A stretch of DNA of 63,774 nucleotides, counting the filler, from Rhizaria sp. SCN 62-66 (taxonomy: Eukaryota), in assembly GCA_001724265.1 (NCBI GenBank). It is 2 parts of 2 records of this genome, joined end to end, with 100 filler letters (N's around TTAATTAATTAA, not from the genome) between each part and the next. Parts side by side here need not be neighbours in the genome. Positions count along the whole stretch, not along the records: positions 1 to 31,862 come from MEDY01000349.1; positions 31,963 to 63,774 come from MEDY01000351.1. One strand, 5' to 3'. Every line of letters starts with the position of its first letter. Position 1 is the first letter of the stretch. Below, piece after piece: positions 1,650 through 62,100 of this stretch. The notes below the pieces were generated by a model. The model worked only from the letters and a program-made list of their open reading frames with translations, did not search any database and had not been told where the DNA came from. The position numbers were made by a program, and so were the translations under genes.

Positions 1650-3410
1650 TCATCGCTCCTTAGGCTGCGGTACAGCATCATCATGTGTCAGGTCACCCAC
1701 AATATCCACCAGAAGCTGATCCAGTCGTATTGCTTCTTCCCTCTCATCAGTGCACGATTTCTGTTTCCGCCTTAGCTTCGACAGCGCGTCACGGCCACCC
1801 GCATCGAAGAAGGCTGCCAGGAACACATTGCGCGGCACGGCGCCCTCAACCAGCACCGCGGGGTCTGCGCTCGTGTCGCCAGCCTGAATCATAAGGCGCA
1901 CAGCCGTGTAGAGCCGTTCCAGCGAGGGTGCCATGGATATGGCGGCGGCGGCAGACAGCGTCTGCGCTAGGTAGAGGAGCGCGCCAGATTCGAGCAGCGC
2001 ATGCGCCACATCCGCCACGTTGCCACCTTTGTCTGTCGGAGCCGCAGCAAGCGCATCGCGCATCAGAGAAGACAGCATTACTGCTACCCTCCACTCAGGC
2101 CTCCGCATATCACCAGTGTGTGGGGGCACGGCCACGCGCGGGATGAGCGTTTGCAGCGCTTCCGAAGCGAACACGCGCGCCGCCATCTCGGGGCCCTTGG
2201 CCTGCAAGTTGGCCAGCGTCCGTATCAACTTTGTCAACTCAGAGAACTCATCGGGTTCAAGAGACATGGCAAGCCGCTGCAGATGCAAGAGCGCGGGCGG
2301 CGTGAAAATGCGCGCAGATACGTCACCGTCGCCGGTCACCGCGGCGACCTGGCGGACAAGGTCCAGCGCGTGACTGCGCATGAAGATGGTTCCTCCAACA
2401 AGCGAGACAATGTCGATGCCACCAGAGACCAGAGCTTCAAAGCGCACACCCTCGCTTTCTTCACGGAAAATGGCCGCTAGCATGCTGACTGCGGAGGTAT
2501 ACGCATCAGCCAACATAGGATTTCCATGAAAGTTTTGTAACGCGAAAAAAAGCAGCGGTAAGATTGGCTCTGTGACACGAAAAGGCAGCGGTGGATCCGC
2601 CGCGTCAAGTAAAAAGGACATCGTATGCAAGAGGGCTATGGGCACAGCGGCACCTACAATGACGGCGCGCTCGAACATCTGGGCCCCGTAGCGAAACACG
2701 GTTGCGAACACGCCGCGCTCGATTAGCGAGTCGATAACGTGGCGCCCTTCGCAGGCGAGGCGGCCCAGCGTCAAAAGCGCGCTACTGACAATCTCTTCGT
2801 TGTCACCATCTTGGTTCAGCATGCGGCAAAGCTTCTCCGACGCGCCGCACTGAAGCAGCGCTGTACAGCCTTCGGAGACAATTGCAACGTTGTAGAACAA
2901 CATAAGAGTCTCGTTTTTGCGTTCGAGCTCAAGCGAGTCTGCACAGTATTCAAGCGATTGCAAAAGCCAATCAAACAAGCTAAGTTCGAGACACGTTTCC
3001 ATAAAGGGCTTCACATTCGACTAACGACGAATGAACGCATTGAGACGCACAACTCCGGTGGGCTTTGGTGTGAGTGACATTAAGTCAGCGAGCGCCCCAT
3101 GGAACTAGACGTCAGAAAACCAGGATGTTATTCGTGAATCAGCGTATTTGACACAGTAGTTGCTCATATATCCCTTTGTAGAAGCTTCAAAGAACATAGC
3201 ACAGAGGGATGCGAGGTTAACAGTGTATACAGGGAGAGACAAACAAAAAGTGGGCGGGGCAGAGTTAGCGTAAGACATGGAAATGGAGAGAGAACGAGTT
3301 TGTACAGCGTAATAGCAAACCCATAAAAGACGTGACATCAATAAAGTACATAAGAATAGCCATTTGTCAAGATTCTTTTTGTTAAATTGCTGTTTTCGTA
3401 ATGTTGACAT
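1650..3410 (-). CDS. Divergent importin-alpha-like armadillo-repeat protein; 5' end uncertain; two in-frame TAG (3105-3107, 3021-3023) if it starts at 3410 or 3167
   Basis: ARM-like helical repeats (NEEIVSSALLTLGRLACEG...IDSLIERGV; IRTLANL; FFDAGGRDALSKL), ending at TGA 1650-1652. ORFs 3105..3410 and 1650..3014 share a frame and are separated only by two TAGs. The N-terminus MSTLRKQQFNKKNLD resembles the start of importin-alpha. A pyrimidine-rich stretch (~3184-3350) may be an intron. Confidence 0.55.
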
Positions 3411-3775
3411 GATATGTCGGCATCAATTTGTGTTTCATGAGGTGGGTGGTGGGTGTTCGTTGACATAGTCTAAAAACAGCATATATCTTTGACATTTGAT
3501 CGTTAAACCAATTGATATAACAGTATATGTCTGTTACACATGTAGTATAAACGAATACTTAATTATATCTCTTAGAGTTGCGATTTAACGCTGTTATCAT
3601 TGACACGAGATTTGACTTGTGGTTGTCGCAACTGTCACACGTAGCTAGGCAGCTTGTGAACAGTGAGCCGTTGTCAACACCGAGACTGAGTTTTGAAATA
3701 AATTTGTATGAAATGATATCAAGATATGATAAAACTGCCCGCACAATCATCAACATATCGATAGTTCCAGCTGCA

Positions 3776-6772: not shown

Positions 6773-6807
<35 letters not shown>

Positions 6808-7298: not shown

Positions 7299-7334
<36 letters not shown>

Positions 7335-10273: not shown

Positions 10274-10309
<36 letters not shown>

Positions 10310-11722: not shown

Positions 11723-12765
11723 GCAGATGCAGCTTGGTGCGCTGCAGCTGCAGATGGGCCGCGGGCTCGCTATGCAGCACCAGCAGCACTTCCAGCAGCA
11801 GCAACAGCAGCAGATACAGAGCGTGAACGCGCAGGCGCAGGCGCAGGCGCAGGTTGTCGCGGCGGCCGCGGCACAGGCGCAGGCGCACGCGCAGGCGCAG
11901 CTGCAGCTGCAGTTGCAGCAGTTGCAGCTCCTTCAACAGCAGCAGGGCCAGCAGCAGCAGGGGCAGCAGTATCAGCATCAGCAGCAGCTGCAGCTTCAGT
12001 TGCAGCAGCAGATTCAGCAGCAGATCCAGCAGCAGATCAATCTGCAGCAGGCCCAACAGCAGCAACAACAACAGCAACAGCACGTGCAGCAGCACGCGCA
12101 GCAGCAGCAGGCGCAGCAGATCTTGATGCAGCAGCAGCAAATGTGGCAGCAGCAGCAGCTCCAGAAGCAGCTGCAGTCACAACCGCCGTCGCAGTTTCCC
12201 GGCAGCCAGACCCAGGCCCAGGCCCAGGCCCAGGCCCAGGCCCAGGCCCAGGCCCAGGCCCAGGCCCAGGCCCAGGGCCAGGGCCAGCAGGGCCAGGGCC
12301 GCGGCTACCCCGCGCGGCCGCCGTCGCACCCGCAGCAACAGCAGTTGCAGCAGCACCATTTGCAGCACCAGATGCAGCTCCAGATGCAGCAGCAGAACGG
12401 CGAGCAGGTACGGCAATCGCGAAAAACCTTTGGTTATCGCCTCATATATTTTTATATGCATCATATTTAAGAGGATAGTCAGTAATATAAATCCTTGAAA
12501 GCCGGGATTTATATTACTGACTGTATTACACATATGTTTTTTGATTAACGAATTGAAAAATACTTTATTTGTATATCTCTGACATATCCCTCCAATATCT
12601 CTCTTTTTGTTTTCCTTGTCCGTCCCTTCCTCCCAGGAGTTGCCCTCGCTGCCCGTGTCGCGTGGCGGCTTCAGCCCCGCGCCCGTCCTCAGTCCCAGCC
12701 CCGTGCCCTCGGGCGCCGGCGCGTCGCCCTACCCGCGCAATTCCACGCCCGTCTCGCTCGCTCAG

Positions 12766-12802
<37 letters not shown>

Positions 12803-13026
12803 TGCAAGGGCTGAGTCTGCAACTGCAGAGCCTGAGCCTGCAGCAGGGCGGCGCGCCCCCGTCGGCCGCCGCGGCCGCCGGCATGCCTGTGGGCTACCCG
12901 GTTGCGGCCGGGATGCCGCAGCAGTTCCAGTTCCAGCAACAGCAGCAGCACCAGCAGCATCTGGGGGGCAACGCGGGCGCTAGAGTCGTCGGCATGCCCT
13001 ACTTGGGGCCCGGCAACAGCAGCAGC

Positions 13027-13061
<35 letters not shown>

Positions 13062-16000
13062 CGGCAACGCCGGTATGGGTGGCCTGGGTTTCGCAGTCAT
13101 GTCCCCCACCTCCGCCTCCGGCCTCAACCTCAACCTCAACCTCGGCCACGGCCTCGGCCAGGGCCACGGCGGCCACGGGATGGGCATGCCGCTCGCGCGC
13201 GCGCCCCCCGGTGCGGGCCCAGGCTCGGGCAACGGCGGCGGCCAGAACGACTCGGCCGCTGCGGCGGCAGCGGCGGCGGCGGCGGCCTTCGCGGCGTACG
13301 GCGCAAACAAGTATTAGACGCAACTGCCACCACGGTAGGTGCCGTCGCCGGTGCGGGACTTTGACAACTACAGCAACAGCAACAACGAGAATGGCGGCGG
13401 CGAGAGCGGCGGCGGCGAGAGCGGCGGCGGCGGGAGCGGCGGCAGCGGGCGGACGCGGATGACGGGAAACGGGAGCGGTGAGAGCGAGCTCGACGACCAG
13501 GGCCTGGGCCAGGGCCTCGGCCGCGCCCTCACCGACGACGCTGGCCGCGACTCGACAGTGAACGTGTCAGACGATGATGAGGAAGACGAGCGGGGACGCA
13601 ACGTGCACAACATCGTCAACAACATCATCTTGCCCGACGAGGACGACGAAGAAGACATCGACCTCAACGAACGCGATCGCAAAGACGTCAGTGCTTCCGA
13701 GAAGCAAAACAGCAACGACGCCTCCAACGAGACAGCTTTGAACTCGCTCACCGACACCATCGCCAACGCCAACGTTGCCGTGGAGTCCCCGGGCGCCGCC
13801 GCGGACATCGTGTGCCAGCCCTCGCGCTCGCGGTCGCTGTCGCACTCACACTCACACTCGCGCTCGCGCTCGCATTCGCAGCCGCGCTCGCGGCCGCTCT
13901 CGTGCGCGCACGACGGCGACGCTGCCAGCACCTTCGACGCCGCCGGCAAAGCCTCCCAGCAACCGCAGCAGCAGAAACAGAAGCAGCATCAGCAGCCAGT
14001 CGCGAACGCCAATAGCGGCCTCGTCGCCAGCAACAGCGGCAGCGGCGGTGACGACCTCACTGGCGTCGGCTTCGGCGTCTCGCTGGCCTCTGCCTCGGAG
14101 CTGCCCTCCGCTCTCGCCGGCCCCGGCCCCGGCCCCGGCCTGACGTTCGCGCTGTCGCCGCTGCCGCTGGCGCAGGCGCACTCGCTCTCGCAGGCGCACC
14201 TCAACGGGCACCCGCATTCGCATTCGCGCTCGCATTCGCACTCGTTCTCCCGCAGCGGGCTCAGCAGCATCGCCGGCCTCAACAGCAGCATCAGCGGTGC
14301 CAACGCCAACATCGATTGCAACAACGGCAGCATCGCCGACACCAGCGGTGACGCTGGCGGGCCGCTCTCGGTCGCTCTGGGTCTGGGGCTAGATCTCGGG
14401 CTGGGGCCTGGGCTCGGCCTCGGCCTCGGCCTCGGGCTCAAGGACAGCAACGGCGGCACTCACTCCGAGCGGCCGCAGCCGCCGCAGCCGCAGGAGGTTT
14501 TCGCCGGCCACGCACATCTCGAGCCTTCGCTGCAGCACGACATCACTACCGTCGTCGCCGATGCTGCCGCCAACTGCGAGCTCGTCGCTAGCATCGCCCG
14601 CGCCAAGCCGCTACCCGCGCCGCTCTCTCAGTCGCAGTCGCTTGCACATGAAGGACCCGCGGCCCGCGGCGACTGCGAGGTGTGCGTGGGGCTCCCGCTC
14701 TCGCCCCTCTGCAGCCACAGCCGCGATCACGGCCACTCGGCCGGCCAGTCCGGCGGGCTGCAGTCGCAGTCGTCGTCGCAGCAACTCGCCGCGACCACGC
14801 TGCCCCCGTCCAGCGCCGGCGATGCGGCATCCGCCTGCGGTTCCGCAGTGGGCTCCGTCGGCTTCCCGCTCAACACCGTCCCGGAGACCGAACCCGCGAC
14901 CCTGCCGCCGGCCGACTACGGCGCCCACGACGCTAATGGCGGCTTTCTGCACAGCGCTACGATCCACATGTCGGGCCTCGCGCTCGCGGCGGACCCCGGC
15001 GCCGGCCTCGTCCCCACGCTTGCCCACAGTCCCCGCCCCAGCCCCAGCCTCAGCCCCAGCCTCAGCCCCAGCCTCAGCCCCAGTCTCAGCCCCAGCCTCA
15101 GCGACAGTGCCGCCAATGCCGAGGCAGGGGCCCGCGGCCTCGCCCCGGCGCCCATGCCCGTCATCACCGGGAGTAACAACAATTACAGCAACAACAGCAA
15201 CGGTTACGGCAACGCGACCCCGATCATTGGCTACGTGTCCGTGACGGCGCAGAGCCAGCGCCTCTCGCAGTCTTCGCTGCCGCCGCACTCGTCGCGCTCA
15301 CACTCGCGACAGCCCTCGACGTCGTCGTGGACCAACGCGGCCGCACTCCCGGTGCTTTCCGCTGCCAACTCCTCTTCCTTCGGGCTGGGCTCGGGCGCGG
15401 GTTCGGGCTGCGCCGCGCTGGGCCCCTGGGCCGGCCCCGGCGCGCCCAGCAGCACGGTCGACCTGTGCGGCGGCAGCGTCGCCGCGCCCAGCCTCTGCGG
15501 CATGAGCGTGCTCGGCGGCGACGGTCTCAATAGCACCGCCGGCGGCCTCAGCGGCGGCGGCGACGGCGCGCGCACCGGCGCCGGCGGCGCGGCGAGCCCT
15601 GGCCCCGGCCTCTGGCCCAGCGCAGGCCCCTGGCCCGGCGCAGGCCCCTGGCCCGGCGCAGGCCCCGCGGCGCCCGCGGGCCTGGGCGCAGCGCCCTCGC
15701 TGGCCAACACGGTCGCGCTCGCAGGCTCCTACCACTACTGTCGTAGTCACAGCGGCTTTCACGGACACGGTCACGGACACGGTCACGGACACGGACACGG
15801 GCATGGACACGGCGGCGTCTACGGCGCCCCCGCATCGGGCTCCGCGACGGCCGCGGCGGCGACGCTCGCTGTCCAGCACTCCGGCCCCGGCTCCAGCCTC
15901 AGCTCCAGCAGCAGCGCCGTAACCGGCAGCGGCGGCGGCGGTGGCGGCGGCGTCAGCGTCAGCGGGGGCGGCGTCAGCGGGGGCGCGTACAGCGCGGGCG

Positions 16001-19000
16001 CTGGCGACCACGGCGCGGCCTTCGTGGGCGCGTCGCCGGTGCAGTCGTCCGTGTCGCTGGGCTCCTCGTTCGGCTCGCCGCTGCTGCCGCCGTCCTCAGC
16101 CGCGCTGACGCCCGCCGCGCGCTCCTCGGTGCTCGCGGCGCACGCCGCCGGCCCCTGCAGCAGCGGCGGCGGCGCGCCGGGCGCCGGCCACCACGGGCAC
16201 GGACCCGGACAGGGCCACGGCCACGGCCAGAGTAACAATGTGACGCCGCTGAGCCACACGCACGGGCTGAGCTACGGCCACGGCCACGGCCACGGCCACG
16301 GCCACGGGGGCGCGGCGTCGACCCACGGCGTGGCGCACCGGCGCTCGCTGACGTCGTTGCGCACTGCGTACCAGCACCAGAGCGCGCACTCGTTCGCCCA
16401 CCAGCAGCACCACCAGCAGCAGCTCACACAGCAACAGCAGCAGCAGCAATTCGCGCTTCCGCAGCAGCAGTACCAGCAGGCGCATGCCGGCGCGGCCGCG
16501 GGTCTGGGCTCGATGGGTGGCGTCTCGCTAACGCCGATGCAAGCCATGACTAAGCTCGGCCCCGGCCACTACGGCCACGGCCACGGCAACGGCCCCATCG
16601 GCCCCGTGGGGCTGAGTCGCGGCAGCGGCAGCGGCAGCTTCAGTGCGTATCCCGCGGACGCGTCGCCCGCGCTGTCGGTCGCCACACTGTCCACGCCGCT
16701 CGTGTCGGCCGCCTCGCTCGCCAACACGCACCAGCAGCAGCAGCCGCAGTACGGACCGCAGTACGCGCCGCAGCACCAGCTGCACCAGACGGCGTTCGCG
16801 CAGGCGCAGGCGCAGGCGGCGCACGCCGCGCTGGCCGCCGTCTCGGGGCTGCCCGCGGCACACTCGCACTCGCCCGCGCACAGCAACAGCAGCAACTACA
16901 GCAGCAGCTGCAGCAGCAGCGGCGGCAACAGCGCCACCGCGGCCGCGCTCAGCCAGGGCGCCACGCACGCGCTGCCGATGCCGCAGAGCGGCCGCCTTCG
17001 CACGCGCACCAGCGCCAGCGGCGCGCTCAGCAGAACGGCTACGACCATCGGCCTCGCCCCCGGCGCCGGCACGAGCTACGGCGCGGGCAGTGGCGCGGGC
17101 TACGGCGCTGGCGCGGGCGCTGCGGCGGGCTACGTGTCCACGACCGCGGCTGCCGCGACGCCGGTCGGCGCCGCTGGCCAGTGCGGCAGCGGCAGCGGCA
17201 GCGGCAACGGGGCCGGTGGACTTACGGCGCGGCTGCCCCCGACGCCCACGCGCAGCTCCGGCCCGCTCATGACGCTGTCCGCGGGCGGTGCGGCGGCGGG
17301 CTCGAGCACGGGCGCGCTGCCTGCGTCGCTGTTCGCGCTGCTGGCGCCCACGGCCGCGCCTGCCGCGCCGCCCTCGGCGCTCTCGCGCACGCGCACACAC
17401 ACTACCAACGCGGGCGGCGCCGTCAGCGCCAACGGCTACGGCCTGGGCGGCTCTCTGTCCCCCGAGCCCGCGGCGGCCGCTGCCCCTGCGCCCTCGGTGG
17501 CGGTGACGGTGTTTGCGGCCCGCGCGGGGGGCTCCAGCTCTGTGTCGGTCTCGAGAACGGACGCGACGCCGCAGCAGTCGCCGTCGCCGTCGCTGCAACA
17601 CTCGCACGCGCACTCGCCGCTGCCGTCTCCGCTGCCCTCGCCGCCCTCCGCCTCCGCCTCGGTGTTCGTCTTCGGCAACGCCACCGCCAACACGATCACT
17701 GTCGGCACCAGCAGCAGCGGCAGCGGCAGTGGCAGCGGCAGCGGCAGTGGCAGCGGCAGCGGCAGCGGCAGCGGCAGTGGCAACGCGGGCGCCGGGCAGC
17801 CGCAGCCGCAGCTGTCGCTGGCGGAGCAGCAGTCGCTGCTCTCGGCGCTCATCCACCAGCAGCAGCCCCAGGGTGACGGCGGCAGCGGCAGCGGCAGCGG
17901 CAGCAGCGACCTGGCTGCGCTCGCGGCCCACAGCCTCTCAGGCCTCGGCCTCGTGCTAAGCCACAGCCACAGCCACGGCCACGGCCACGGCTACGGCTAC
18001 GGCCACCAAGGCCCGCAGGCCTTCGCGGGGCCGTTCCCGCAGCAGTCCAGCGTGCCGACGCCGACGGCGAGCCCCGACGCTAGTCTGACCCTGAGCCTCA
18101 ATCTGAGCCCCAGCCCCAGCCCCGACCCCAGCGACAGGGACAGGGCCGGGGACAGGACGGGTGCCGCGTCTGCGTCTGCGTCTGGGTCTGGGTCTGGGGC
18201 CGCGCACTCGCCGTGCGCGCAGTCCCAGCTGCAGTTGCAACTGCAGGCTCATCTGCAGGCCGTGCTGGCGGGTGTGGACCCCTCGCTGCTGGCCGCCGCC
18301 GCGGCCGCCGCCTCCGCGGGCGCCGACTCGACGTCGTCGGCGGCGCTGGCGGCCCTGTCGGCGACCACGGGCGTGGACGCGCACTCGCTGCTCTTCGCGC
18401 TCAGCCTGGGCGCGCTGCCGCCCGCCGCCGCCGCGCTCGCCTCAGCTGTCTACGCCCGCGCGCTCGCCGCAGGCGCGTCGGCCGCCACCGCCGCCTCCGC
18501 AGGCGCCGCTGCTGCGAGGGCCGAGCTCGTCGCCAGCAACAGCGGCAGCCACAACGATAGCAACCACAACAGCCTTTCTGACGTCAGCAGCAGCAGCAGC
18601 AGCAGCAGCGCATGCAACACCGGCTTCAACGACGCATCGTTCGCGCCCTCGTTACGCGTCACGGCCCCCGCGCCTGTGCCCGGCTCCGGCTCCGGCGCGA
18701 ACACTAGTCTTGCTGCGGCATTGCCCCCGCTACTGTCGCTGCCGGTGTCCCCGCTCAACGCCCCGCTCAGCGCCCCGCTCGGCGCCGCGCCACACGCCCC
18801 GCCTCACGCCGCGCCCAACGCCGGAGTCTCCGACGCGGGCGCTCAGCCGGCGCGGCAGCAGGAGCGTGCGTCGCAGTCGCTCGCCGACACGGTCATAAGC
18901 AGCCGCGGTGGCAGCGGCCGCGGCAGGGCGCGCGCCGCGGCCCGGGGCTCTGACGGCCTGCAGCTGCAGCTGCAGCTGCAACAACTCCAGCAGCAACAAC

Positions 19001-47000: not shown

Positions 47001-50000
47001 GTTGCGCCAAACCGGTGGTGGCACGAGGCCCCGCTGCAGCGAGTAGTCGAGTCAACGTCGCCATAGCGCTCCTCGATGCATGCTTCGAGCCACCGCTTTC
47101 AGAGTGCCTTGCAGCGGCACTGTCCTCATGCTGAGGAAGATTGGGCGAAAGTGCAAGCCAAGTGAGTGCAACGCGCTCAGCAGTGCCATCAATAGGCCCA
47201 GCACAAACAAATTTGTCAGCACCACCAAGAGGGCACTGAGATTGCGTTGCCGCAGAGTTGGAGCGACCGCTTCGATGAACGGCGGCAGCAGCATCACGTA
47301 TCTCATCACTAATGGACACAGAGATAGCTTCCAGTGGTAGAGACGCCATGCGCAGCAGCGCCAGAGACAGTGTTGTGTCATCCGCCGAAGTCACGGTCTC
47401 CGACGCAGCACACAAAGCTTGCGATGTGAAGAAGTCCAACAACACAATGAGGTTACGTGCGTTAATAAGCAGACTTACACAGTCACCAACTGCATTGTCG
47501 GCTGCAGCCGTTGTCCGACTGCGCTTCCTGGCCCGACGTCGGTCATCACTGTGACTGTGTCCGTAACCGTGGTTGTGATCGACAGCCTCATGACCACCGT
47601 GCACGCGTGCTTTTGCGACTGCGCGGGCCAGCGCGGTGATGCTGCTGCAGCCTGCACTGAGTAGCGCGTCAGGATCACACCATCGCGGCGGCGTAAACAG
47701 CGGTGATGCAAGTGACGAGTTTGCAGTCCCGGAGCACGATGGAGAGTCGTCACACGCCACACGCGCAGTAGCAGCAGTTGAAGCAAGCGCAAAGGGCGGC
47801 GTAAGCGCGTGCCATGGGCGTTGCAGCGCACGTGCGAGTCGGTGCATGCGAGCAGCCGCAAGCGGCGCACAATGTGTCCCGAGCGCTGCAGCTGCCGAGG
47901 GCGCCAATGCGGCGTCATCAGAAGCAGGAGCTGCTGCTGCAAGGGCAGAGAGAGCAGTAATATCCGCATTTGCACCAAAGAGAGAGAGGAGAGCATAGAG
48001 TATGTCAGCCTTACTCTTCGTTGAATCGTCATCATCTTGGCCGTTAGTGTCGCCATATTCGCGTCGTTGCGGCAACAGCGTGTGTGTCCCACTCATTGCG
48101 TTGCAACAGTTTATGAGTGAGGGCAACATCAGCGACTTGACCGGGTCTCCTCTGTTTATTCCAACAGGCTCCAACCGGGAGTGCTCAACCCGATGCCGCT
48201 GTGTTCTCGTCACACCGTTATGCTTGGAACTTGTACTCGCGGCCGAGTCTTCAAGCGCTGTTGCAGCACTGTGACGAGCAGTGCTGCGCTGAAGTCTCGC
48301 TGCCTGATTTCCCGGAACAGGCGAGAGTGGTGCGAGCGCAGGAGGAAAGTTCAGTGCAACTGGCACAAATGCGCCGTCGAACGATGCTTCATCATCACGC
48401 CCACTACTCAACGCAGACGCAGCAAGTGATGGGTTCTCCAACTCCGGCGGAGCCGGCGGCAATTCGGGGCCGAGAGGCTGCGTGATTGAGTTATCGAGAG
48501 CTTCGTCGCCAAGAGGTGTTCTCAATTGCGCGTCGTTGTGTGTTCTGCCTGTGGCGTAGTCTGCGGCGCGTGCAGCAGCACGCGCAAGCGCTGAGGCAGA
48601 AACAGTGTGAGCCTCCTCAACCGCAGCGCGCACAAGCGCCCTGACGGCCAGGACAGCTGTCGTAAGAGCTGCCAGGCGCGCGCCCGCAGACACTGCCGCC
48701 GCAGCTGTTGTGGCCGCCTCTGCAACCGTTTGTCGCCCCTCACAGTCATTAAGCGCGGCTGACGCGATTGCAGGTAACAGCAAGCGGTGCGTGGCGCATG
48801 CACGCCACGATGGCAGACGACGTAGCCATAGTGAAGCTGCAGCTGACGAGGAATGATATAGCGCGCAAGCTGGCGTGGGACGCGGCGGGGCGGCGGCCAG
48901 CGCCAACGAGCGCAGCGGAGCCGCAGCCAACCGCGCTGCAAATCCTGCGAGCTCAGCGGCATCTGTTGCGTTGCTTCCAAGAGCAGCAGCCGCAGTCTCC
49001 GTGCCAGCAGGGGCTGACGCAGTCGGACTGACATGTGCGAGCGCAAGAGAGGGCAGCAGGCGTGGCGGCAGCAACACAGGCGCGTTGAGAACCGTGACCG
49101 TGGGCCAACAAAGGCGATAATACGTTGTCTGCTGAGGTTGAAAATAAACACACGATGCGCCGCCGCAGGCCGTATCAGAGCGTGTTGCACCTTCTCGACA
49201 CTCGCATATACACTCGCTCTCGCACTGGCAGTCATTGGAGCCAGCTGTATCGCTGCAGCTGCAACTGCAACTGCATTCGCTGCGATTAGCATCAACGCTC
49301 GATCCTGCGCATGGATGCACAAGAGCGAGGTAGCCGCGGTCGAGCAAAATCTGTCCTAACGCAACAACCCACGCCTCTGCGCCTGTCTTTTTACACAAGG
49401 TAGCAGGGGCAACATTTGCAGTGCTATGAGACTTAGTATCACTCACAGGCTTGGGACTCGTGGCACCGACGGATCCGGCGACTGTTGCGCGCGCAGCGTC
49501 TGCAGCAGCAGGCCCCCAGCCGCGGCCAACAGCGGCTGCAATGAAGGCCGCGATCTCAGCGCCAGTGGTGCAAGCGGGTATATTTGCACCACCGCGCTGC
49601 CGTGCGCGCAGAGACAAAGGCGCGAGCGCAGGCGACACGCGGTGCGCTAGGAACCACGCCAGCGAGCCTGCGGGCGCGACCGGCGCTGCAGCAGTAGGAG
49701 CAGTGAGACCGTCTGCATTTGCGCCAGCCCAGGCCGCTGTGGCGGCGTCAAGCGTAGGCTGTGACAACACCTGCGTTTGAGCGTGCTCGAGCGACTGCGC
49801 TGCAGTAGGTGCGGGCGGAGAAACGGGGCTGTGCCATGGCGGCGAAAGCGGTGAGCGATCAAGCAGTGGCGGCTGCGGTGTGGCAGCTGCACCAAGAGCA
49901 GGGGAGTAAAAGACAAAGTCGTCGCGATCCGGCGAGCTTAGTCCTGCCTCGTCATCAGCACTCAACTTAGCCGCAGCAGACTTTGCAGCAGTAGTGATGT

Positions 50001-53000
50001 TGCCAGTAATAGCAGTTAACCCAGCGCAAGCACCCAGAGTAACTGCCGATTGTTTATCCTTGCTTGTAGTTGTAGAACGAGCAGTCCCGTTCGTCGCAGT
50101 AGTTTGCACTACCGCGGCAGGTGTGCCGTTGTGCATTGCGGTGGCAAGCACAAACAGGTGGTAGTCGGTCAACATCCACGGTGTCGCAAGGGCAGGTCCG
50201 CTCGCAATCAGTCCAGTGTCAATTGCACGCGTCACGCCGTCCGCAACGACAGCATCCACAGCGGCTGCCTCTGCAGCGGCTGCGGCGGCCTCATTCTCGG
50301 CTGCAGCGCAAAGGTTAGCAGGGCTGCTGCTGCTGCGGCTCATCGCACGCGTCGTGCCACGCGCACCGCTGACCGCAGTGCTCGCACGTGCTGCGGCGTA
50401 CGCGCGCGCTCTCGCGTGCGCAATCGCCGTCAGCGTGTTCGAGGCGGCGAATGCAGCAACATCAGCAGACGCGGCGGCAGCCGGGCCCAGCAGGCAGAGC
50501 GCGCGCGGCAGCTGCGGCGCGGCAACTGCGAGCTCAAGATCGTCACCACCTTCAAGATTACAGGGCGCTAGTGCAGTTGCAGCAGATGTGGCTGTAGCAG
50601 CAGCGGGCAGCAGCGCTAACGGAGGATCGTAGTGGTTGTCACACACAAGTAGCCGGTCACTGCGCGCGCGCGCACTTTCGCGGCGCTCAACAGCAGCTCT
50701 CGCAGCAGAGCCCCAGCCAGGTCGAGTCATGGAGGGCGCGGGCGAGGACGCGGCGACTACATCGTAAGCCGAGTGCGAGTGCCCGTCAGCTGAGAGCGTG
50801 GGACTGGCCGACGTCGGACGCGGCCGCTGGTGTGGAGTCATTGACGGAAAATGAAGTCGCTCTCCGCTGCGCCCTGACGGTGGCGTTACCGTGCGCTGTT
50901 GTTGATGTTGTTGTAGAGATGGCGACAGCAGAGTGCGCCCTTGTACCAGCCCCTGCATACAAGACTGGGATGACTGTGATTGAAGGTGAAGCTGGGTGCC
51001 ACCAAGCGCGTGTGTGTTGACGTTCGTACATGTGAGCAGAGGCGTGTGCGCAGTCTGCGACAGCCACAACGACTCGTCTTCCACGGGACACCACATGCGG
51101 TTCCCGTCGCGCTCACTCTCACGGGCCTCCGCACCGCCGTCGCTCCTGCTCGGCTGCGGAGCAGAGTTGCCACTGGACGCGCCCGACCCTGGTGCCAGCG
51201 CGGGGCTGCGGCCGCGCGTGGCCGCGGTCACAGGCGCCGGCTCCAGCACCACGAGCTTGTACCCGCGCGGGGCGTGCTGCGGACTGTGCGCACGGCTGTG
51301 GCCATGGCTGTGTGCGCGACTGCGCGCGAGGCCGCGCACGGGACTCGCGCTGAGCGGTGCCTCGCCAGCCGTAGCAGCGGGCCCGACCACGCCGACGGGC
51401 GCGGACAGCACCGGGACTGGCGCCGGCACTGCGAGAGTCGTTGTCCCCGCCGTAACGGCGCTTGGCGAGAGCAGCGCGGGCGGCGGCGACGCGGCGCGCG
51501 GACTGATAACCGTGGGAGCAAGAGTGGGCGTGACAGTAACAGTAACTGTAAGCGAGCGACGCATGCCGCCAAAGCGTGCCTTCAAGGCATTAGCGGCCTC
51601 GCCATTCCCCGCGGTTGTCGCAGCAGCAACAGGCTCGTGTTGCGTGACCTGTTGTGACGGCTCAGTCGCGTCGTGCAGGGAGAAGCGCCGTCCAGCCCCC
51701 GCGCCCACACTCGCACTCGAAGTCGGGCCGTCATCGCCGTCAGTCGCACTCGCCGAAGCAGTTGGCACGGTCACGGGCGCGTCCGCGTTCGCCGAGAGAT
51801 GTACCGTAGCGCGACTGAGCGCAGCGCCGCGCGGCGTAGGCGGGACAACAGAGAGTGCGGCGTGCAGTGCAACTCTAGCAACGCCACCGTCACTCGTGCC
51901 TGCGGCCGCCGGCAGCCCGGGCGACGGCAGTGGCGACAGAGCGGCGGCCGGCGCACGCATCTCCGACAGCGCTGCTGCTGAGTGCAGCGGGGAGAAGTAT
52001 GTGTTGCTCAGTGTCACGCCAGAAAGAATGTTAACGTGCGCGCCTGGGGCAACCGCAATCACTGTGCGCTGCGGCGGCGGATGCAGCAAGTTCGACGCTA
52101 AAGCCAAAGAGGAGGACGACGAGAGCGCTGTGTTCGAAGCAGCAGCGCCAAGCGCAGGCGGCAGCGCTGGGGACATGCAGGGCGACGCGCGCGGTGACGG
52201 CCGCGGAGACCACTCCAGATAGGGCTGCGCCACTGCACCTGCGTGCGCGCCGCTGTGGAGCCCGGCACTGCTGCCGCTGCTGCTCGCACTGTGCTGGAAG
52301 TTGAGGTGCAGCTGTTGCGGCTGTGGCTGCACAGGTTGCGCTTGTTGTACCTGAGCTTGTGACAGTGGCTGCACGGCAGGGTGCGACTGCGGCCCGTGTG
52401 CATGGCCGTGCGAGTGCGCGTGCGCAGGAGGCTGGTGATGCATGAGAGGAGGGGAGTGCGGCGGCAGTGGCGGCAGCGCAAACACGCCTGCGCCTGCCGA
52501 TGCCGGGACAGTGGTTGCCGCGGAACCGGCTCTTGTGCCAGTCTGCTCCAACGATCTCCCGCCGGGTGCAGCGCTCACATTGCTGCCGCTGTTGTTCCCA
52601 GCAGTAATAGCGGAACTATGCGCGGGAAAGAGCGCAGCGACAGCAGAGTGGGCGGCCCCGAGCCCCGCGAGACTCATATCAAGCCCGAAGCTCGCGCCTG
52701 CAGCGCCAGCAACGACGGGAGACATCGCGGGCGACTGACGCATGCTTGCGCTCCCGCTGGAGCCCCCGCCGGCAGTCACGGCGGAGCGCGCGGCAGCCGC
52801 GGCGTGCGCGCGCGCAAGGAGGCGCGGAGACGGCAGCGTGATGAGCGACAGTGGCTGCAGAGAGGCAGTGGGCAGCGAGCCGCTTTGGAGAGCGATCGGC
52901 ACCAGCGACGGCGACGGCGACGCTGACGGAGAGCGCACATAACCTGCAGACATGGGCACACGTGCACGCGGGGCTAGCAGCGGAGACGCCGTCGCTGAGG

Positions 53001-56000
53001 CCGCGACTGAGGCAGAGCCTGAGCCGGAGCCCGAGTTTGAGGCCGGAGCAGCGACTGACAGCTGTGCTGGCACCGGGCCAGTCGCGGGGGCAAGGAACGG
53101 AGACAACGCCTCTGGCCCACGTTTCACTGGAACAATAGAAGTCATCTGGTCTGCAGCAAACACAGGGGCAGCGGCAGCAGTCGCTGAGGCCGAGGTGGCC
53201 GCAGTGGGCGTAAGCGGTGGCAGCCTGCGAACAGCGCCCGCGTGCGCCCGCGGTGACGGTAGCGGCGGGAAATGCGGGGTCGACGTCGGCGACGGCACCG
53301 CGGACGCTGTGGCGGACTGCAGGTGCGAGGCCGCGGCAGAGCCGGAGCCAGAGCCGGGAACCGAGCCGGGCGCTCCGCCTCCCGCGAGCGGGGGCGTCGC
53401 GTCGCGGCCAGCGCCACCCTGGCTGCCGGCAGCAGGTTGCGCTGCACTGCGGCCGTGGCTCAGCGTGCCGGAGCGGTGGCTGAGGGCGCGGCCGCGCGGG
53501 GGCCCCGTGTAGCCGTTGCTAAAGTCGTTGTTGTCTCCATCTTCAACCGCAGCGTTCAGCCTTTCTGCGGCGGCACCGTCAGCTGCAGTCGCAAGCGCAG
53601 TCGCGCCAGCCGCGTTGACAGGCGTCACGTTGTCTGGCCCGGAGCCAGCTTCGGAGCCGGTCTCGGTCACGGTGACTGCTGGGCGTCCTGAAGAAGAAAG
53701 CCTTCTGTCGCCGCTGCTTGCCACACTGTGGCGTGCGTAATGCTCCTTACTATCATCAGCAGTAACGGTGGGGAGCGGCAGCGCAAGGTTGGTGCTGTCG
53801 TCGAGACGCAGGTCCTCAGCGCCTCCGTCGTGAGCTACAGGCGGCGGCGCGCCACAGTGAAGAGGCGGGGGCGTGGCCACGTAGAACGCTTCCTTGACAG
53901 GCGCTGCCAAACCCAACGCAGAGTTACCAGCTTGCACGCTGGCCAAGTCGCCCTCAGCAAGAAGCGCATTTGCAAGAGCAATGGGTTGCTCGAGGTCTGC
54001 GGGGACATTGCCAGCCCCCCGCAAGCGGCGCGAGAAAGCCAAACCAGGCGGTGTCTGAAGCAGTGTCTCAGTAGGGTCATCCGACATCTCTGTGCCAGCA
54101 TGTCGCTGTTGCAGTTGCTTCTGCAGTGCATTGGTTGGCGACGGCGAAGTTGAGTCTGCGGGCGAGGCAAGCTTCGAAGACGGAATACGCTTCACACCCG
54201 TAGCGCCAACAGCAGCGCGGCGAACACGCTCATAACCATCAGCGCCAGCCTCGGTTGCAGTGGCGCCAGCAGAATCAGCGATTGACACCAAGGGCGCGGC
54301 AGCCGTCGCCAGGGCGGAGTCCGTCACAGAGACCGCTGATGCCGCGGTGCTGTAGCAGTTTGAGTGGGCCGACAGGTCGGATCTCGCGCGCATCAGCTGC
54401 GACGGCACCAAGCCCTGTGCCTGACCAGCGCTGCTGCCCTCGCTGTTTGCATGCGTTGGCGAGTGCAGTTGTGAGTGCCCACTGAGCGTCGAGTGTAACG
54501 GGAACAGCGAGTCCGAGGGCGAAAGTTCGTGATGAGACTCAACGTCGGCGTGAAAGTCAGGCTGGCACGCCCCAGACTGCGGCGAAGACTCGCCCCGCCC
54601 AGTCTGCACAGACGCAGGTGCTTGTGCCTGTGTCTGCGCAGCTGCGTCTGTCGGCGTCAAGTTCAGAAGCGGCTGTGCGTGGGTCGAGAGCGAAACACTG
54701 TTCCCACCCGCGCCACGGTTACTCTCGCGGTCGCGGTCACGCTCCCCGTTGCTACTGCGGAGCCCGCGCAGTGGCGGGGGAAGGCGGCTAACCTTCCTGC
54801 GCCCGGTCCTGCTCACGGCCACCACGTCCACCGCTGCAGCAGGCTCCGCAGCAACAGCGTCGTGCGGCGCGCTCGCAGCAGACACGGCTGCAGCGCGGTC
54901 AGCATCGCCCACAGTGGTAATGCTGTCACGGTTGTCCGCGTCTGTCGCTGACTTAGGACTGGCCTCGGCACTGCCGGTCGCCGCTTTACCCAAACCGCGC
55001 GCGCGCACGAACGGCGGCGCCGTGACCGACACCAGCGCCGGCACGGCCGCCCCAGTCTCCGCCGCAGCGGCAGCGCCCGTGCCGGCCACACCTGTGCTGG
55101 CACAGGCTCTCGACGCAATGTTCGGCACTGCGAGAAGCGTTGCCGTCATGAACGCCTGCTGTTGCTGCTGCTGCGCGAGCGTCTGCTGTGGCAGCGTGAC
55201 TGTGTGCGTGGCGAGCTGCGACAGCGTGCGCGGGCGCGTGTCGGCGGAAGCCAGCGCAGCACCCGCTGTCTGCAAGCCGGCCGCGGCGGACTCCGTCTCC
55301 GAGGGCGCGGGCGAGGCCGAGGGCGAGTGCTACGGCGACCGCGGCGACGCCGACGAGGCCGCGGAGCCGGAGCCCGTCGCGGAGAGCGTGGCGCCAGAAA
55401 GAGAGCTAGCCAGGTGCGCGCTGTAGCACGAGGACGCGTTCAGCGGGCCGCCGACAAGGCCGCCGCTGACGCCGTTGCTGAGGCGACAACTGGGGGAGCT
55501 GCCGCTGCCTTGCGCGCCGGCGCTGTTGGTGCTCACGCTGCTCTCGCGCGCCTCACTGTAGGCGCTCTCGCTTTCGCTCTCAAGATCGCTGTCGCTGTTG
55601 CCACTGCCGTCGCCGCTAGCGTCGGCCTCGTCCTCGTTGTCGTCGCCGTCGTGGGGACTGAGACCGCTCCGAGCGACAGTGGTCACAGTTGTCGTTGCGG
55701 CAGTCGCGGCAGCGCGCGTGCGCACTGGGCCGTTGCGACTGGGTCCATGCGCGTGAATGCTACCGATGGTAGCGTTAAGCGCAACTGTGATCGGATCTGA
55801 TTCAGCTGAGTCTGCATTGCCAGCGCTTGGAGTGGCGCGCAGGTTGCCGCTGCCCCAACGCACGCGGGTCCGTGCCGCCCCTGCCGCAATATGCTCATGT
55901 TGTTGCTGCTGCTGTTGTTGCGCGCATGCGTCGTCGTGGCGCTCTAAATACCCCGAGCTGTCTAAGTACCCCGGCGACGCGGGTAAGTACCCCGCGGCGG

Positions 56001-56865
56001 ACATCTCCGGCGTGTGCAGGAAGCCCGGCGGCAGGAGCCCGCTGTGGCCGTGGCCGTGGCTGTGGCTCTGGCTGTGGCTCTGGCCGTGGCTCTGGCCGTG
56101 CCCGTGGCCGGCGCGGCCGTCCTGGCTGTGGCTGAGGCTGTGGCTGTGGCCGCGGCTGTAGGACTGGCTCTGCAGTAGCCCACTGCAGGCGCTGCTAGGG
56201 GTCGTGATGCGGCTGAGCGCGTGCGCGTTGTCACTGCTGAGCTTGGCCTTGTCACTACCGCCGCTGCCGCTGATGCCACCGGCATCGCCATTGCCGATGT
56301 TTCCACTGTTGCTGTTGCTATCATTATCATTCTGGTTATCGTTGTTGTTCTTGCTGGTGCTGGTGCCGGCGATGTTCTCACTGTTGAGCATACTGCACAC
56401 ACTGCTGCTGCCGCGACTGGGCAGAGACAGCCCTGCAGGCCCCGACACACGGCTAGAGCCAGAGCCGGACGTGAGTGTCTGGATATGCGTCTGCGTGCGT
56501 GTCCGCGCTTGTGTTGGCGTTTGCGATTGCGCCTGCGCCTGCACTTGCGCCTGCACCTGCCCCTGCACCTGCAAGGCTGCGGGTGCAGGGGCGGACGCGG
56601 GCGCGAGCGGTGGCGATTGCTGTGAAAGCAGCGCTTCAGCTAGCAGCGACCTGCGCGGGCCCTGCTGCTCTTGTTGACGCTGCTGTTTCTGCTGTTGATG
56701 TTGCGACAGCGAGCTGCTGCTGGTGTTGTTACTGTTGTCGCGCGCGCTGTCACTGGGGGTGAGAGCGGGGGCGGGGGCCGAGCGCGGCGGCGGCTCGGCA
56801 GAGGCAGGGCTCAGCGCGCCACTGGACTCTCGTTGCCTACTCTGAGAGGTCCCAAACGGGTTCAT
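44026..56865 (-). CDS. Giant (~4279 aa) low-complexity protein with a DEP domain and a degenerate DUF547-like region; one in-frame TAG at 55330-55332
   Basis: ORFs 55330..56961 and 44026..55275 share a frame, with only a TAG between them. DEP-like: CTTGAEIAAFI...VALGQILLDRGYL...FQPQQTTYYRL (~49110-49610). DUF547-like: LLINARNLIVL...ILGGAVYTQRDLE (~46650-47480). TGA stop. Confidence 0.6.
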
Positions 56866-57562: not shown

Positions 57563-58562
57563 ATGGCTAAGAAGGTGGCATTTTGGCCTGCCGAGCTCCG
57601 AAGCCTCGGTGAGAGCGCTGCTGAGGTCGAGCGTCTCGTCATTGAGCTCGACTACACCAAGTCTAAGGTCAGTCCATTAAGTATTCTCATGTGTGAACTA
57701 TAACGACTCTGTTTTTATGTAACCTTGATGTCTATTGACACTGTATTGTGTATTTACCTTGATATTTGCTGACTGCGTCACTTTTTTCGTGTTTGTACTC
57801 GCCTCTCGCCGCAGAGCATTGCGTGCGACGCTCGCCGACAACGCAACAAGGCCGCGCTCGCCGAGCTCCGCAAGAAGGCGCACACCGTACGTCTCCTCCC
57901 TGCGGCATGCTGTCGCACTTTGCACACTACTTTATCACTCTCCATTCACCCATGTTTTACTTATGCTGATTTGGTCTGCAACTTGTAAGAGCCGCCTCAG
58001 TCATATCACTTTTGTTCTCACGCGGTGCTATGGTTGTGTTTTCTTCCTTCGTCCCGTCTAACATTGTTTCATTCACATTTTGCACACAGGTCTCCGGCGA
58101 CCCTGGTGCCCAGGTTATGTACAGCTCTGGTTCCTTTTTCTTCAAGACCTCTCCCGAAGCCGCCGTCGAGGCACTCAAAGCAGGTTCGTTTTATTCTGGA
58201 AGTTCTCTTAGCTATCTTGCACCTATATAGACCTGCTTCTACACGCCTGTTTATGGAGTACCGTCATCAGACCACATATAAGACCTTCACATTTTAATGA
58301 TATCATTGCAACTCCTCATTGTCTTTCATGCGCATATCCTCGCTTTGTGTGCGCTCTCTCAGAAGAGATCGCTCTCTCGGCCGAGATCTCCGCCCTGCTA
58401 TCGAAGCAGAAGTCGCTCGTGGCGCAGATTGCCGAGCTGTCGGACCTCTCCGGCGGCGCGTTGGGTGTGCGCGCGCGCGACGACCCCGTGTCCGCGTCCG
58501 CGGCGGCCGCGCGCGGCGAGGGCATCGATGCCGCCTCGCTCAAACTGCTGCTTCGCAATTGA
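57563..58562 (+). CDS. PDRG1: PDRG1-like prefoldin-family protein, join(57563..57667,57815..57886,58090..58183,58363..58562), 156 aa
   Basis: Three GT-AG introns give an open 157-codon frame: AEVERLVIEL...DARRQRNKAALAELRK...VMYSSGSFFFKTSPEAAVEALKAEEIALSAEISAL. This helix-hairpin-helix pattern matches recalled PDRG1. TGA stop. Confidence 0.75.
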
Positions 58563-59119
58563 GGCAGCGTCGCACGGTCATGGCTGTATCTCGGTCTGAA
58601 TGGCCTTGTGATCTAAGGTATACGCCATAATGTTGGGTGGGACTCTGTACTTAGCTGAGGCTGACTTCAGAAAGCAATAGTGACGCTTCAAAGGCCAATT
58701 ACGTGTCGCAAATGCCTAACTTGGCAAAAGATATCTCGCGACTACTTAGATCAATACAGTAGAACTTCATGTATTTGATTAACTTACCCATGTTTTACAA
58801 CACCTCTGAACGATGAGCTCACAGGCTACCGTTTCATTGATATCATGACACGAATAATGAAAGTGACACTTGCTTGATGCTGCCTCGGTTCTTTGGGTCC
58901 TCCAACGGCCCTCGGACCGAGTTAACGCATTGATGAGCAACTCACTCCACATGCAACCTGTTAAAGTTGCACCTTGATGAATAGGCTAACGCGACTGCAT
59001 ATTATTCTGTTATATTATTACAATTTAATAATTTCTTATCTACCGCTCCCACACGCATCTTTGCTTCTCACTCTGCGCTAACTGAACGGTCACCGTCCCG
59101 CCAATCTAAACTAGGATCC

Positions 59120-62100
59120 ATGGAGGTACGCTTTTACAAGATTTTAATGAAAACGCCTTGAATACCTGTAATGACAACCAAAAAACAATCTTGCTGATTT
59201 GATTGTTTCATATAACTCTATGATTGTCTCTACATCGTAGGACTTCGACTCAGTTCTCATGGGCACTTCGGGCGCGGACCTAATGTCCGGTGCCTTGGTC
59301 CCTTCCGAGGGCTCCGCACCTGCCTCTGCTGAGATGGCCTTTCTGGAGCAGCTCGCTGAGGTGGCTGCGCAGGCTGTGTACGATGACGACCGCGGTGCTG
59401 AGTTTATCGAACACCACATCGCGATCTGGGATATGCGCCGCGGCACCGAGAGCGACACGCTCACTCGTGGTGACTTCCCGCCCCTGCCCGCGTCGCTGCC
59501 GCCGTCCCTTGCGCGCCAGCGCCAGGAGCTTGTCTTGTTCTGCGCAGAGAACGAGCTCCGCACGTGGGTACTGTTGCGGCACCTGCGTAAGGTCGAGGAG
59601 ATCGTGGCCACCGAGGCCTACGCTGCTATTCGCGCCGCACCCTTCCCCGCGCCCGCCGCGGCGGCCTTCTCGCCCGCGCGCGTCGCAGAGGCCTGCATTC
59701 AGCGTGATCCTGAGCTGCTGCGCTGCCAGGCCGTGCTGGACTGGCTAGAGTAGACAGTCGCCGACGCCGACGCCGCTGCCGCCGCCGCCACGTCAGCCGC
59801 ATTGCCGTCGCTGTCATACCGCCCCACGCTCACGCGCCTCAGCGCGCTTAAGGCCGTCGCAGGCGCGGACCTGCCGTACGCCGACGTGGACGCCGGCGCG
59901 GCGCTGCTGGACCCGCGCGACGCCGAGGCCGAGACGCAGGCGCTGCGGGCGTCGTGGCGCCACCTGCGCGCGGGCCGCGGCGACCGCGCCGTCGCAGACT
60001 GCGCCGCCGTCGGGCTCGGCTGGCGCGCCGCGCTGCTCGCCGGTTCCGGCGACGCCATGTTCGACGTCACGGCCACAGGAAGCGTGCGTGGGAATCTTTC
60101 CTACGCGCTTTTCAAGCAACACATGCGCGCTCTTGCGCTTGGTGTGCCGTACCCCGCGACCGGCGCTGGCAGCAGCACCAGCGCGAGTTCGAGTGCGGCG
60201 CCGGGCAGCGCGCTGGCACTGGAGCGGGCCATCTTCGGCGTCCTCTCCGGCGCGCCGGGCCCCGCGCTGGCGGCCAGTGCGGACTGGACGGACGCGACCT
60301 GGGCGCTGTTCAAGTGCCTGGTGACCTCGACGGTCGACGCCGAGGTCGCGCGCGTCGTTGCCTCGCACGCCGCCGCCGCGGCCACCGCTACGACCGCGGC
60401 CGCGATGGGTGACTGTGCGGCCCCGCGCCGTGGCAGCGCCGGCGTGCTGTGCAGCGACGCAGACGACGAGGACGCGGACCCAATTCTGTCGTGGTCCGTC
60501 GCGCGGCACGAGTACTCGCCCAGCTACGCCACCGCCGCGGGCGGCGCCGGCGCGCAGGCCAGAGTGTTTGCCGCCGCGGCCGCGTACGACCCCGATGTGT
60601 TCGCGTGCCCGCCGCCGACGGTGGACGCGCGCTGCGCTGACGCCGCGGCCGCGCTGGCCGAGGCGCGCCGCCGCTTCGCGCTGCCCGCCAACGACGCCGA
60701 CGCGCGCTTGCTCTTTGCGCCCGCCGCCGCGCCATCGGCCGCCGCCGCGCTCAGCGCCAGCAGCGCCAGCATCGCTGACGCGGGCGTGAGCGAGGGCGAC
60801 GACGCGGGCGCCGATGCTGCGGCCACCACTCAGTCTCCGTTGTCGTTCCTGGCCACTACGTACCGCGTGTTGCAAGAGCTCCTCATCCTAGGCCGCTACG
60901 CAGAGGCCGAGGCGCTGCTTGCGCGCAGGCTCACCGCCGTCGCTAAGGCCGCCGGCGTCGCCGCGCCTGCTCCCGCCGCCGCTGACGCCGCTGCCGCTGC
61001 CGACGCCGCTGCGGCCGCATCGGGCGCAATGACGCTGTCCGTCGGCGCGGGCGCTTTCTCTTTCGCCGCCAGCGGCAACACCAACAACAGCAGCGGCGGT
61101 GCCAACGCCGCGCTGTACGCGGCTGCGCTGCCGGGCCTCTCCGCGCTCGCCGCGCACCTGAGCCTGTACCTGTTCAAGGGCGTTCCGCAGCGCGCGACGG
61201 CGACCGCGGCGGGCACGCGCGCGCTGCGCACGCACGCTCTCGTGCTCGCGCGCGGCGGCTGCGACGCCGCCGTGCCGGTCTACTGCGACCTGCTGCCGCC
61301 CGCGGCCATGGTGGCGCACTACGCGGCCTACCTTTCGGCGTTGGGCACGACCGAGGAGCAGCGCGAGATGCTGCGCGAGGCCGGCCGCTTCCCGCGGCTG
61401 CGTGCGCAGGTGCTGCCCATCACCAAGCTGCTCGTGCAGACCGTGCTCACGGCCTCGGAGCTCGCAGACCTCGCCACGTCCCGCCTCGGTTACGACGGTG
61501 ACGACGACGAGGCCGGCGTCGACGCCATCGCTGAGGCTGCCGGCGCTGGCGCCCGCAGCGGGCTCTTCGGCGCCGCGACGCCCCAGTCCGCCGCCGCCCC
61601 GGGCCGCAAGTCCAAGAGCGGGTTTGCCAACGCCACCGGGGCGGGCACGCTGTTCGCCGCGACTCCGGCTCGCGCGGGCGCCGGCGCCACGCCCCGCGGG
61701 CCCTTCGGCTCCGCAGCGGCGCGCTCGGCTGCCGGCGCGGGTCACCGCAATACTGGCCATGGCAGCCAGTTCAACACCCCTGTCGTGCGTCTCAACTTCT
61801 CCTCCCCCGGCGCCAACAGTGCGACGCCCGCCGGCGCGACACCCGCTGTGGCTCCCGGTGCGCTGATGGCGTCACCGGGCGGCCGCGGCGCGTTCCTGGC
61901 GTCGTCCGCGGTCGTCGCGGCCGACACTGAAGTTTCTGCGGGCGACGCGCAGAAGATCGCCGTCGTCTCCTGCTTCGAGGCCGACACGGCGGGCCCTGCG
62001 CATATCCTCGAGGCGCTGCTGCATACCAACGCGCTGTCGCGCTACTTCGTCTTTGAGGGCAAGCTGGGCGCGGCGCGCGAGCTGGCGCGGCACTCGACCC

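Follow-up and report, generated by a model that had tools for sequence, protein, structure and literature searches.

The codon UAG is likely to be translated as an amino acid in the organism represented by a 63.8-kb stretch of DNA (63,774 nucleotides (nt); hereafter the window), joined from two records of the assembly GCA_001724265.1 and listed as Rhizaria sp. SCN 62-66. The window is nuclear eukaryotic DNA, and four in-frame TAG triplets in three of its genes, a Nup84/Nup107 nucleoporin gene and two genes for long low-complexity proteins, lie inside what appear to be continuous coding sequences. The likelihood covers full reassignment and leaky reading taken together; of these, full reassignment that leaves UAA and UGA as the sole stops is the leading form and in our judgement the probable one. 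Position-dependent or leaky reading ranks second, tolerated 5' nonsense alleles third, and splicing or editing last. The original prediction, that UAG is sense while UAA and UGA stay stops, was drawn from six TAG triplets in four genes at which coding was said to continue. Direct reading of the sequence found all six in place and in frame. Coding does continue at four of them, in three of the four genes, and there a sense UAG is the best explanation; the remaining two, at 3021 and 3105 in the AT-rich flank of a single gene, lend it no support. The features that carry the argument are as follows.

12640..21282, plus strand: gene e, a Q/N/A/G/H-rich CCCH zinc-finger protein of 2800-2900 codons, ending in TAA
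13315..13317, plus strand: in-frame TAG, codon 145 of 2800 in gene e, first of a pair 21 nt apart
13336..13338, plus strand: in-frame TAG, codon 152 of 2800 in gene e, second of the pair
44026..56865, minus strand: gene i, a giant low-complexity protein of 4280 codons, from ATG 56865 to a TGA
55330..55332, minus strand: in-frame TAG, codon 512 of 4280 in gene i
59259..63050, plus strand: gene j, the Nup84/Nup107 homologue, with exon 1 at 59259-62524, exon 2 at 62660-63050 and a TGA end
59751..59753, plus strand: in-frame TAG, codon 165 of 1219 in gene j, the best-supported site
62525..62659, plus strand: predicted intron of gene j, 135 nt, GTACGT..TTTTAG

Eleven gene models were built, totalling 17,593 codons. 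Their in-frame stop triplets are four TAG (in three of the models), no TAA and no TGA, which bears out the prediction that no modelled exon holds an internal TAA or TGA. Out of frame the same sequences contain 130 TAG, 124 TAA and 553 TGA, a TAG share of 16% (130/807), and at that share the chance that four of four in-frame stops would be TAG is about 7e-4. The off-frame rate of TAA plus TGA is 0.019 per codon; a stretch free of both would reach upstream of the TAG by chance with a probability of 0.013 in gene e (225 codons), 5e-5 at 55330 (511 codons) and 0.043 at 59751 (164 codons). Open frames that arose by chance and are broken only by TAG are excluded. Termination uses TAA in six models (genes c, d, e, f and g and the SAP30-like gene), TGA in five (a, b, i, j and k) and TAG in none. 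The sample is small: were TAG normally the end of 20-30% of genes, none in 11 would have a probability of about 0.02-0.09. The terminator used most is TAA (6/11), although the G+C content at third codon positions (GC3) is 0.63-0.93 per gene in the ten gene models measured (63-93%, about 0.8).

The TAG at 59751 interrupts a single conserved domain. GC3 is 0.68-0.96 from 59226 on, and 0.78-0.86 beside the triplet. The 164 residues upstream match positions 5-69 of the Pfam profile Nup84_Nup100 (E 2.5e-4, 19.8 bits; taken alone, below the 22.5-bit cut-off), the sequence downstream matches positions 136-271 (E 3.2e-32), and exon 2 matches positions 616-711 of 717 (E 9.4e-7). The gene runs past a TGA at 62532 by way of its 135-nt intron to this last exon. 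A relative in a JGI record (P0003) has an uninterrupted open reading frame (ORF) of 1029 residues that, from residue 23 to the end, runs collinear at 47% identity; the alignment is gapless at the site, DWLE-E-T in the relative against DWLE-TAG-T in the window. The recorded ORF of this relative reads 46 residues into what is apparently the same intron as 62525-62659. A profile built from these two sequences aligns with the solved human NUP107, residues 208-470, in one stretch across 59751.

An exhaustive HMMER search with Nup107 gave 356 matches at E <=0.001, among them the window's own two pieces: one of 164 residues that ends in DWLE (P0127) and one of 343 residues that starts just after the TAG (P0126). 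The column at 59751 was examined in 29 of the 35 best matches. The two own pieces were left out, as were P0133 and P0154, whose best stretch misses the column, and P0149, P0151 and P0153, which were dropped without a rule. All 29 homologues have a residue at the column, which adjoins an invariant W-L and a nearly invariant E. The residues are E in 10, S in 5, K in 3, two each of D, R, H, Q and A, and N in 1; Glu is what each of the five best-scoring relatives carries. Judged from this alignment, the ancestral state of the lineage at the column would be Glu, with other polar residues tolerated. The site is the sole alignable one, and with Glu in 10 of 29 and a column that is variable overall, Glu is only weakly favoured as the amino acid; Gln, Ser and Lys remain candidates. 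A metagenome scan with P0003 for the DNA of relatives returned only a contig (L001, 2269 nt) identical to window positions 61141-63409, and scans of genome contigs and viral contigs with the Nup107 alignment found no relative.

In the two other genes the argument comes from composition and strain variation. The GC-rich frame of gene e opens at ~12640, with its first ATG at 12883, and GC3 is 0.84-0.94 in every 150-nt segment from ~12640 to beyond 13900, through both TAGs. For gene i, GC3 is 0.66-1.00 in 24 of 27 segments from ~56900 down to 54900, with three segments over 55932-55633 at 0.54-0.66, and reaches 0.88-0.90 on both sides of 55330. At all four TAGs the GC-rich frame sets in where an AT-rich spacer ends, several hundred codons upstream of the triplet. 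Between the Met at 56865 and the TAG at 55330 five strain differences were found, of which four are synonymous third-position changes and one exchanges S for T; the indels listed for gene i are of 6 nt each, at 56260 upstream of the TAG and at 54724 downstream. These differences and 6-nt indels fit translation of the gene i frame on both sides of the TAG, and hexamer repeats could also give indels of 6 nt. A third listed indel is a 2-nt gap at 60390, in gene j. An orthologue search for gene i around the TAG found only the window's own 3707-residue ORF call, and 12 exact ORF look-ups upstream and downstream of the TAGs in genes e and i found nothing.

Sequencing runs were compared for the sites at 59751 and 55330. 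The four runs are represented by Logan contigs of patchy cover, whose gaps carry no information, come from studies other than the likely source of the window and date from 2025, against 2015-2017 for that source; both TAGs are unchanged in them, with no alternative letter reported for either. In run X4 a contig covering 59614-59766 has TAG at 59751 and one synonymous difference at 59705, and it extends 13 nt beyond the site. At 55330 a contig of run X7 (55327-55548) matches without differences and reads the triplet, with 3 nt beyond it. The 164-residue ORF that ends at 59751 is on record from six contigs of four sources, and the 3707-residue call that starts after 55330 (P0005) is found on three contigs. 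Because its ORF occurs on six contigs and the triplet is unchanged in runs of other studies, a one-off error of assembly does not explain the TAG at 59751.

The two sites set aside lie on the minus strand, at the 5' side of an armadillo-repeat gene.

3021..3023, minus strand: TAG, rejected, six codons upstream of ATG 3002 of the armadillo-repeat gene
3105..3107, minus strand: TAG, rejected, in the AT-rich sequence flanking that gene

As coding TAGs both are ruled out: GC in this flank is 0.34-0.52 at all three codon positions, with no excess at the third, the mark of every gene in the window. They give no support to a sense UAG because they stand upstream of the armadillo-repeat coding sequence and lack a GC3 excess. 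In the frame read through them (P0275), with the TAGs at residues 105 and 133 and a Met at residue 140, matches to solved armadillo-repeat structures are confined to residues 168-250, and two in-frame TGA codons occur farther upstream, near 3440. The AT-rich frame upstream of the gene showed neither a GC3 signal nor homology, and an NCBIfam search of the extended gene-b frame gave no match. On the same strand, 3024-3419 has TAG as its one kind of stop triplet and runs for 132 codons with neither TAA nor TGA, a length reached in only 1.1% of shuffles; it was not counted as support.

Several results weigh against a sense UAG, or narrow what can be claimed for it. The case consists of four codons in three genes, three of the codons stand in unalignable low-complexity sequence, and for both TAGs of gene e the exact ORF look-ups came back empty. 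In-frame UAG has a density of about 0.23 per 1000 codons, at least tenfold below that of published UAG-only codes; it is very rare beside the 436 GAG and 596 CAG counted over ten gene models, and the conserved ABC-F gene (963 codons) has no UAG at all. All four TAGs come early, within 5-14% of the coding length of their genes (nominal p about 0.0025, post hoc), where an even spread would be expected of a sense codon in free use; this 5' bias is a hint of position-dependent reading or of early stops being tolerated. Random nonsense substitutions in this codon usage yield TAG in 63-66% of cases, and a set of four that are all TAG has a probability of about 0.17 under a model of mutation or error. 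The restriction to TAG thus discriminates well against chance open frames, where that probability is 7e-4, and poorly against real nonsense mutations. No listed contig spans 59751 or 55330 with 31 nt on both sides. A contig of the polyA run X5 (57569-58135) is unspliced over two introns, so that DNA or pre-mRNA is present in this run; cover by X5 is for that reason no proof of transcription. The argument from introns had been overstated, as described below. Within the window, ARAGORN found no tRNA genes and Rfam gave no matches.

The alternative that survives best is ambiguous or leaky decoding, in which UAG is both stop and sense, a state like that of some ciliates, whose stop/sense codes depend on position, and of Blastocrithidia, whose UAA is dual. 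It would account for the early position of all four TAGs in very long genes, for the scarcity of UAG in frame (4/17,593) and for its absence from the compact, conserved ABC-F gene. Position-dependent codes are known, as far as they are set out in the text available from two sources (10.1101/2022.04.12.488043; PMC12153298). The internal TAGs are indeed 5'-biased, but a code of this kind sits poorly with the terminators, none of which is TAG in the 11 genes, and the four sites have no common 3' context, the next bases being A, G, C and A. At Nup107 codon 165, moreover, inefficient readthrough would be costly, Nup107 being a scaffold nucleoporin. We regard leaky decoding as unlikely.

Less probable again is an ordinary code with real premature stops. 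These could be 5'-proximal nonsense alleles that are tolerated, being rescued by re-initiation downstream or carried on one haplotype; they could also mark pseudogenes of recent origin, or be errors in the consensus of metagenome assemblies. Nonsense codons are best tolerated near the 5' end, where these four lie, TAG would be the outcome of about 64% of nonsense changes made at random with this codon usage, and the contigs derive from metagenomes. The TAG in Nup107 is also a single G-to-T step from the GAG or GAA Glu codon that its relatives lead one to expect. Yet with three of 11 genes affected, the frames downstream are open for 1054, 2647 and 3767 codons, in which GC3 is strong and TAA, TGA and frameshifts are absent. 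If 2.2% of substitutions are nonsense, ~180 random changes in 52 kb would be needed to produce four such codons. Six contigs and a strain ~0.5% diverged agree on the TAG at 59751, and here too the absence of TAG among the 11 terminators is unfavourable.

Removal or alteration of the TAGs in the mRNA, through short GC-rich frame-preserving introns or through RNA editing, is very improbable. The introns and the gene that bear on this are as follows.

25183..25350, plus strand: reference intron of the ABC-F gene (in which ABC_tran domains were found), 168 nt, GTCCGT..TTTAG, GC 0.38
57564..58562, plus strand: gene k, a small four-exon gene between giant gene i and the Nup107 gene, ending in TGA
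57668..57814, plus strand: intron of gene k, GTCAGT, removed in a spliced cDNA contig (run X7)
57887..58089, plus strand: intron of gene k, GTACGT, removed in a spliced cDNA contig (run X7)
58184..58362, plus strand: predicted intron of gene k, GTTCGT

The original prediction had held that no frame-preserving intron could remove the TAGs, and this does not stand: 117, 117, 193 and 92 GT..AG pairs with a length divisible by three would remove the respective triplets and leave the frame open, and a single 63-nt candidate, 13311-13373, would remove both of those in gene e. TAG is also a real 3' splice end elsewhere in the window (TTTAG at 25350). The candidates nevertheless differ from the five introns defined here, which are 135-203 nt long, have a GTNNGT 5' site in five of five and a GC of 0.38-0.46 in the four measured. 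GC in the candidates is 0.57-0.77, and among the 40 shortest examined per site only one (59564-59842) has GTNNGT; it would delete residues conserved with P0003, whose uninterrupted ORF aligns residue by residue at 59751, so that any intron at that site would cost conserved residues. As the candidates are GC-rich and, one of those examined apart, lack GTNNGT, unlike real introns, an intron at the TAG sites appears unlikely. Among the 15 joints listed, out of 32, none is a GT..AG joint at a TAG; the same cDNA run shows the two introns of gene k spliced. Long joints near 55320, 55921 and 59785, with low-complexity sides of 21-28 nt, were treated as repeat artefacts. Editing of UAG to UGG by A-to-I conversion is known from filamentous fungi, but the aligned residue at 59751 is Glu or another polar residue in the 29 homologues and never Trp.

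Three further explanations were tried and rejected. Programmed stop-codon readthrough is contradicted by the lack of a shared 3' context (ACG, GTG, CAC, ACA) and by sites at 5-14% of the coding sequence that split a single domain; recoding of the pyrrolysine or selenocysteine type by the lack of a shared downstream element across the four contexts, and for UAG we know of no eukaryotic precedent; and separate genes abutting at the TAG by the absence of a spacer, by frame and GC3 that continue unchanged, and by the one domain that would be divided.

Under full reassignment, a tRNA whose anticodon is CUA would insert an amino acid at UAG, eRF1 would recognise UAG poorly, and UAA and UGA would stay terminators; the gene for eRF1 is not in the window. 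The rarity of UAG suggests that the reassignment is young or still costly. A more specific version, which we put forward tentatively and think rather doubtful as a whole, is that UAG alone has been captured for Glu, with UAA and UGA kept, in a GC-rich, non-ciliate and possibly stramenopile-related protist at an early stage of the process. That early stage, which we hold just as tentatively, would have very little UAG, and that only toward the 5' end of long genes. In the literature searched we found neither a code in which only UAG is read as Glu nor a reassignment of UAG in a GC-rich non-ciliate or stramenopile lineage, and a code of the former kind is not known to have an NCBI translation table.

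The organism is a eukaryote that has not been cultured, with few introns and GC-rich genes, and its DNA recurs in bioreactor and wastewater metagenomes; the same DNA is present in bioreactor, wastewater and activated-sludge runs of ten studies. Besides the Nup84/Nup107 nucleoporin, the window encodes an ABC-F protein, a SAP30-type Sin3-binding domain and RanBP2-type, CCCH and RING zinc-finger proteins, and several of its genes are giant low-complexity ORFs of 2,800-4,300 codons. Spliceosomal introns are present, the two spliced out in the cDNA contig of run X7 among them. Introns and intergenic DNA are AT-rich (GC 0.31-0.49 in the stretches labelled AT), and the gaps between neighbouring gene models, mostly AT-rich, range from ~210 nt to several thousand nt. 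Among the 120 of 7,055 matches listed for the ABC-F protein, five are metagenome relatives at 65-76% identity, and the best organism-named matches are to oomycetes (46-47% identity), with diatom and dinoflagellate entries at ~41-42%. A search of the Protein Atlas with the same protein gave generic ABC-F clusters only, with no taxonomic signal. From its GC-rich genes and ABC-F affinities the lineage does not look ciliate-like, and it is perhaps related to stramenopiles.

Other features of the window were noted in passing. The ABC-F protein has a long C-terminal tail of K/E/A/D-rich repeats (26900-27846, plus strand) in which the motif (A/D)MLAMMAGLA(D/G) occurs four times. An exon at 28107-28328 on the minus strand encodes the SAP30 Sin3-binding domain (E 4.2e-12) and ends in TAA; a TAG just upstream of it resembles the 3' end of an intron. 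Two exons of gene k were tested against Pfam, with no significant family. The longest gap without a convincing gene is 21300-24700, ~3.4 kb of mostly AT-rich sequence (GC about 0.43). Two N runs (31863-31906 and 31919-31962, 44 N each and 12 nt apart), which are filler joining the two records, separate the minus-strand ORFs 29667-31862 and 31964-43591; these may form one gene of >4600 codons.

Few nuclear codes are known to alter UAG and leave UAA as it is, and each tests the co-evolution of release-factor specificity and suppressor tRNAs. The present candidate is useful in standing outside the ciliates and in having very GC-rich genes, where codon loss driven by composition predicts the loss of UAA and not of UAG. 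Sparing use of UAG is what would be expected shortly after capture or under incomplete suppression, and if the early-stage view is true, one could examine directly whether the tRNA or eRF1 changes first when a stop codon is captured. There is a practical side as well. Gene callers split or truncate such genes, Nup107 being recorded as pieces of 164 and 343 residues and the 4280-codon gene as a call of 3707 residues, and the metagenome annotation of the lineage would be systematically wrong if the code went unrecognised.

The closest parallels are the two UAG-only codes described in PMC5304391, which, in the part of that paper drawn on here, are Iotanema spirale, with UAG read as Gln and 204 in-frame UAG in 126 genes, and the rhizarian exLh, with UAG read as Leu and 384 in 71 genes. 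As in both, in-frame stops in the window are exclusively UAG, terminators are UAA and UGA only with UAA common, and a tRNA(CUA) and a change in eRF1 are predicted, not seen. Set against the same portion of PMC5304391, the window differs in having four UAG in 11 genes, at least tenfold rarer and biased to the 5' end; its sole alignable site points to Glu, GC3 is 0.63-0.93, and the case is known from DNA alone. In phyllopharyngean ciliates, as far as the text available from PMC11687900 describes them, UAG is read as Leu or as Gln and UAA is the preferred stop. There too UAG alone has changed, UAA is the main stop, and the codes came to light through metagenomes or public assemblies; the ciliates have widespread UAG and identified suppressor tRNAs, whereas the lineage studied here appears non-ciliate-like and the window holds no tRNA (PMC11687900, same extent).

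Position-dependent systems offer a partial likeness. Karyorelict ciliates and Condylostoma, in the sections of 10.1101/2022.04.12.488043 considered, also read stops far from the 3' end as sense, but there the same codon also terminates, whereas here TAG ends none of 11 genes. For Glu at UAG there are two precedents, each taken from part of its source: Oligohymenophorea sp. PL0344, in which UAG is Glu, UAA is Lys and UGA is the stop (PMC10553269), and Blastocrithidia nonstop, in which UAR is Glu, UGA is Trp and UAA also serves as a stop (PMC12153298). In the closest relatives of the window's Nup107, the aligned column is likewise occupied by Glu. On the evidence of the same parts of PMC10553269 and PMC12153298, UAA has been reassigned in both organisms, whereas in the window it ends six of 11 genes and never occurs in frame. 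Codes that change UAG alone are thus already known; one that reads UAG as Glu and keeps UAA as a stop would, if true, be new.

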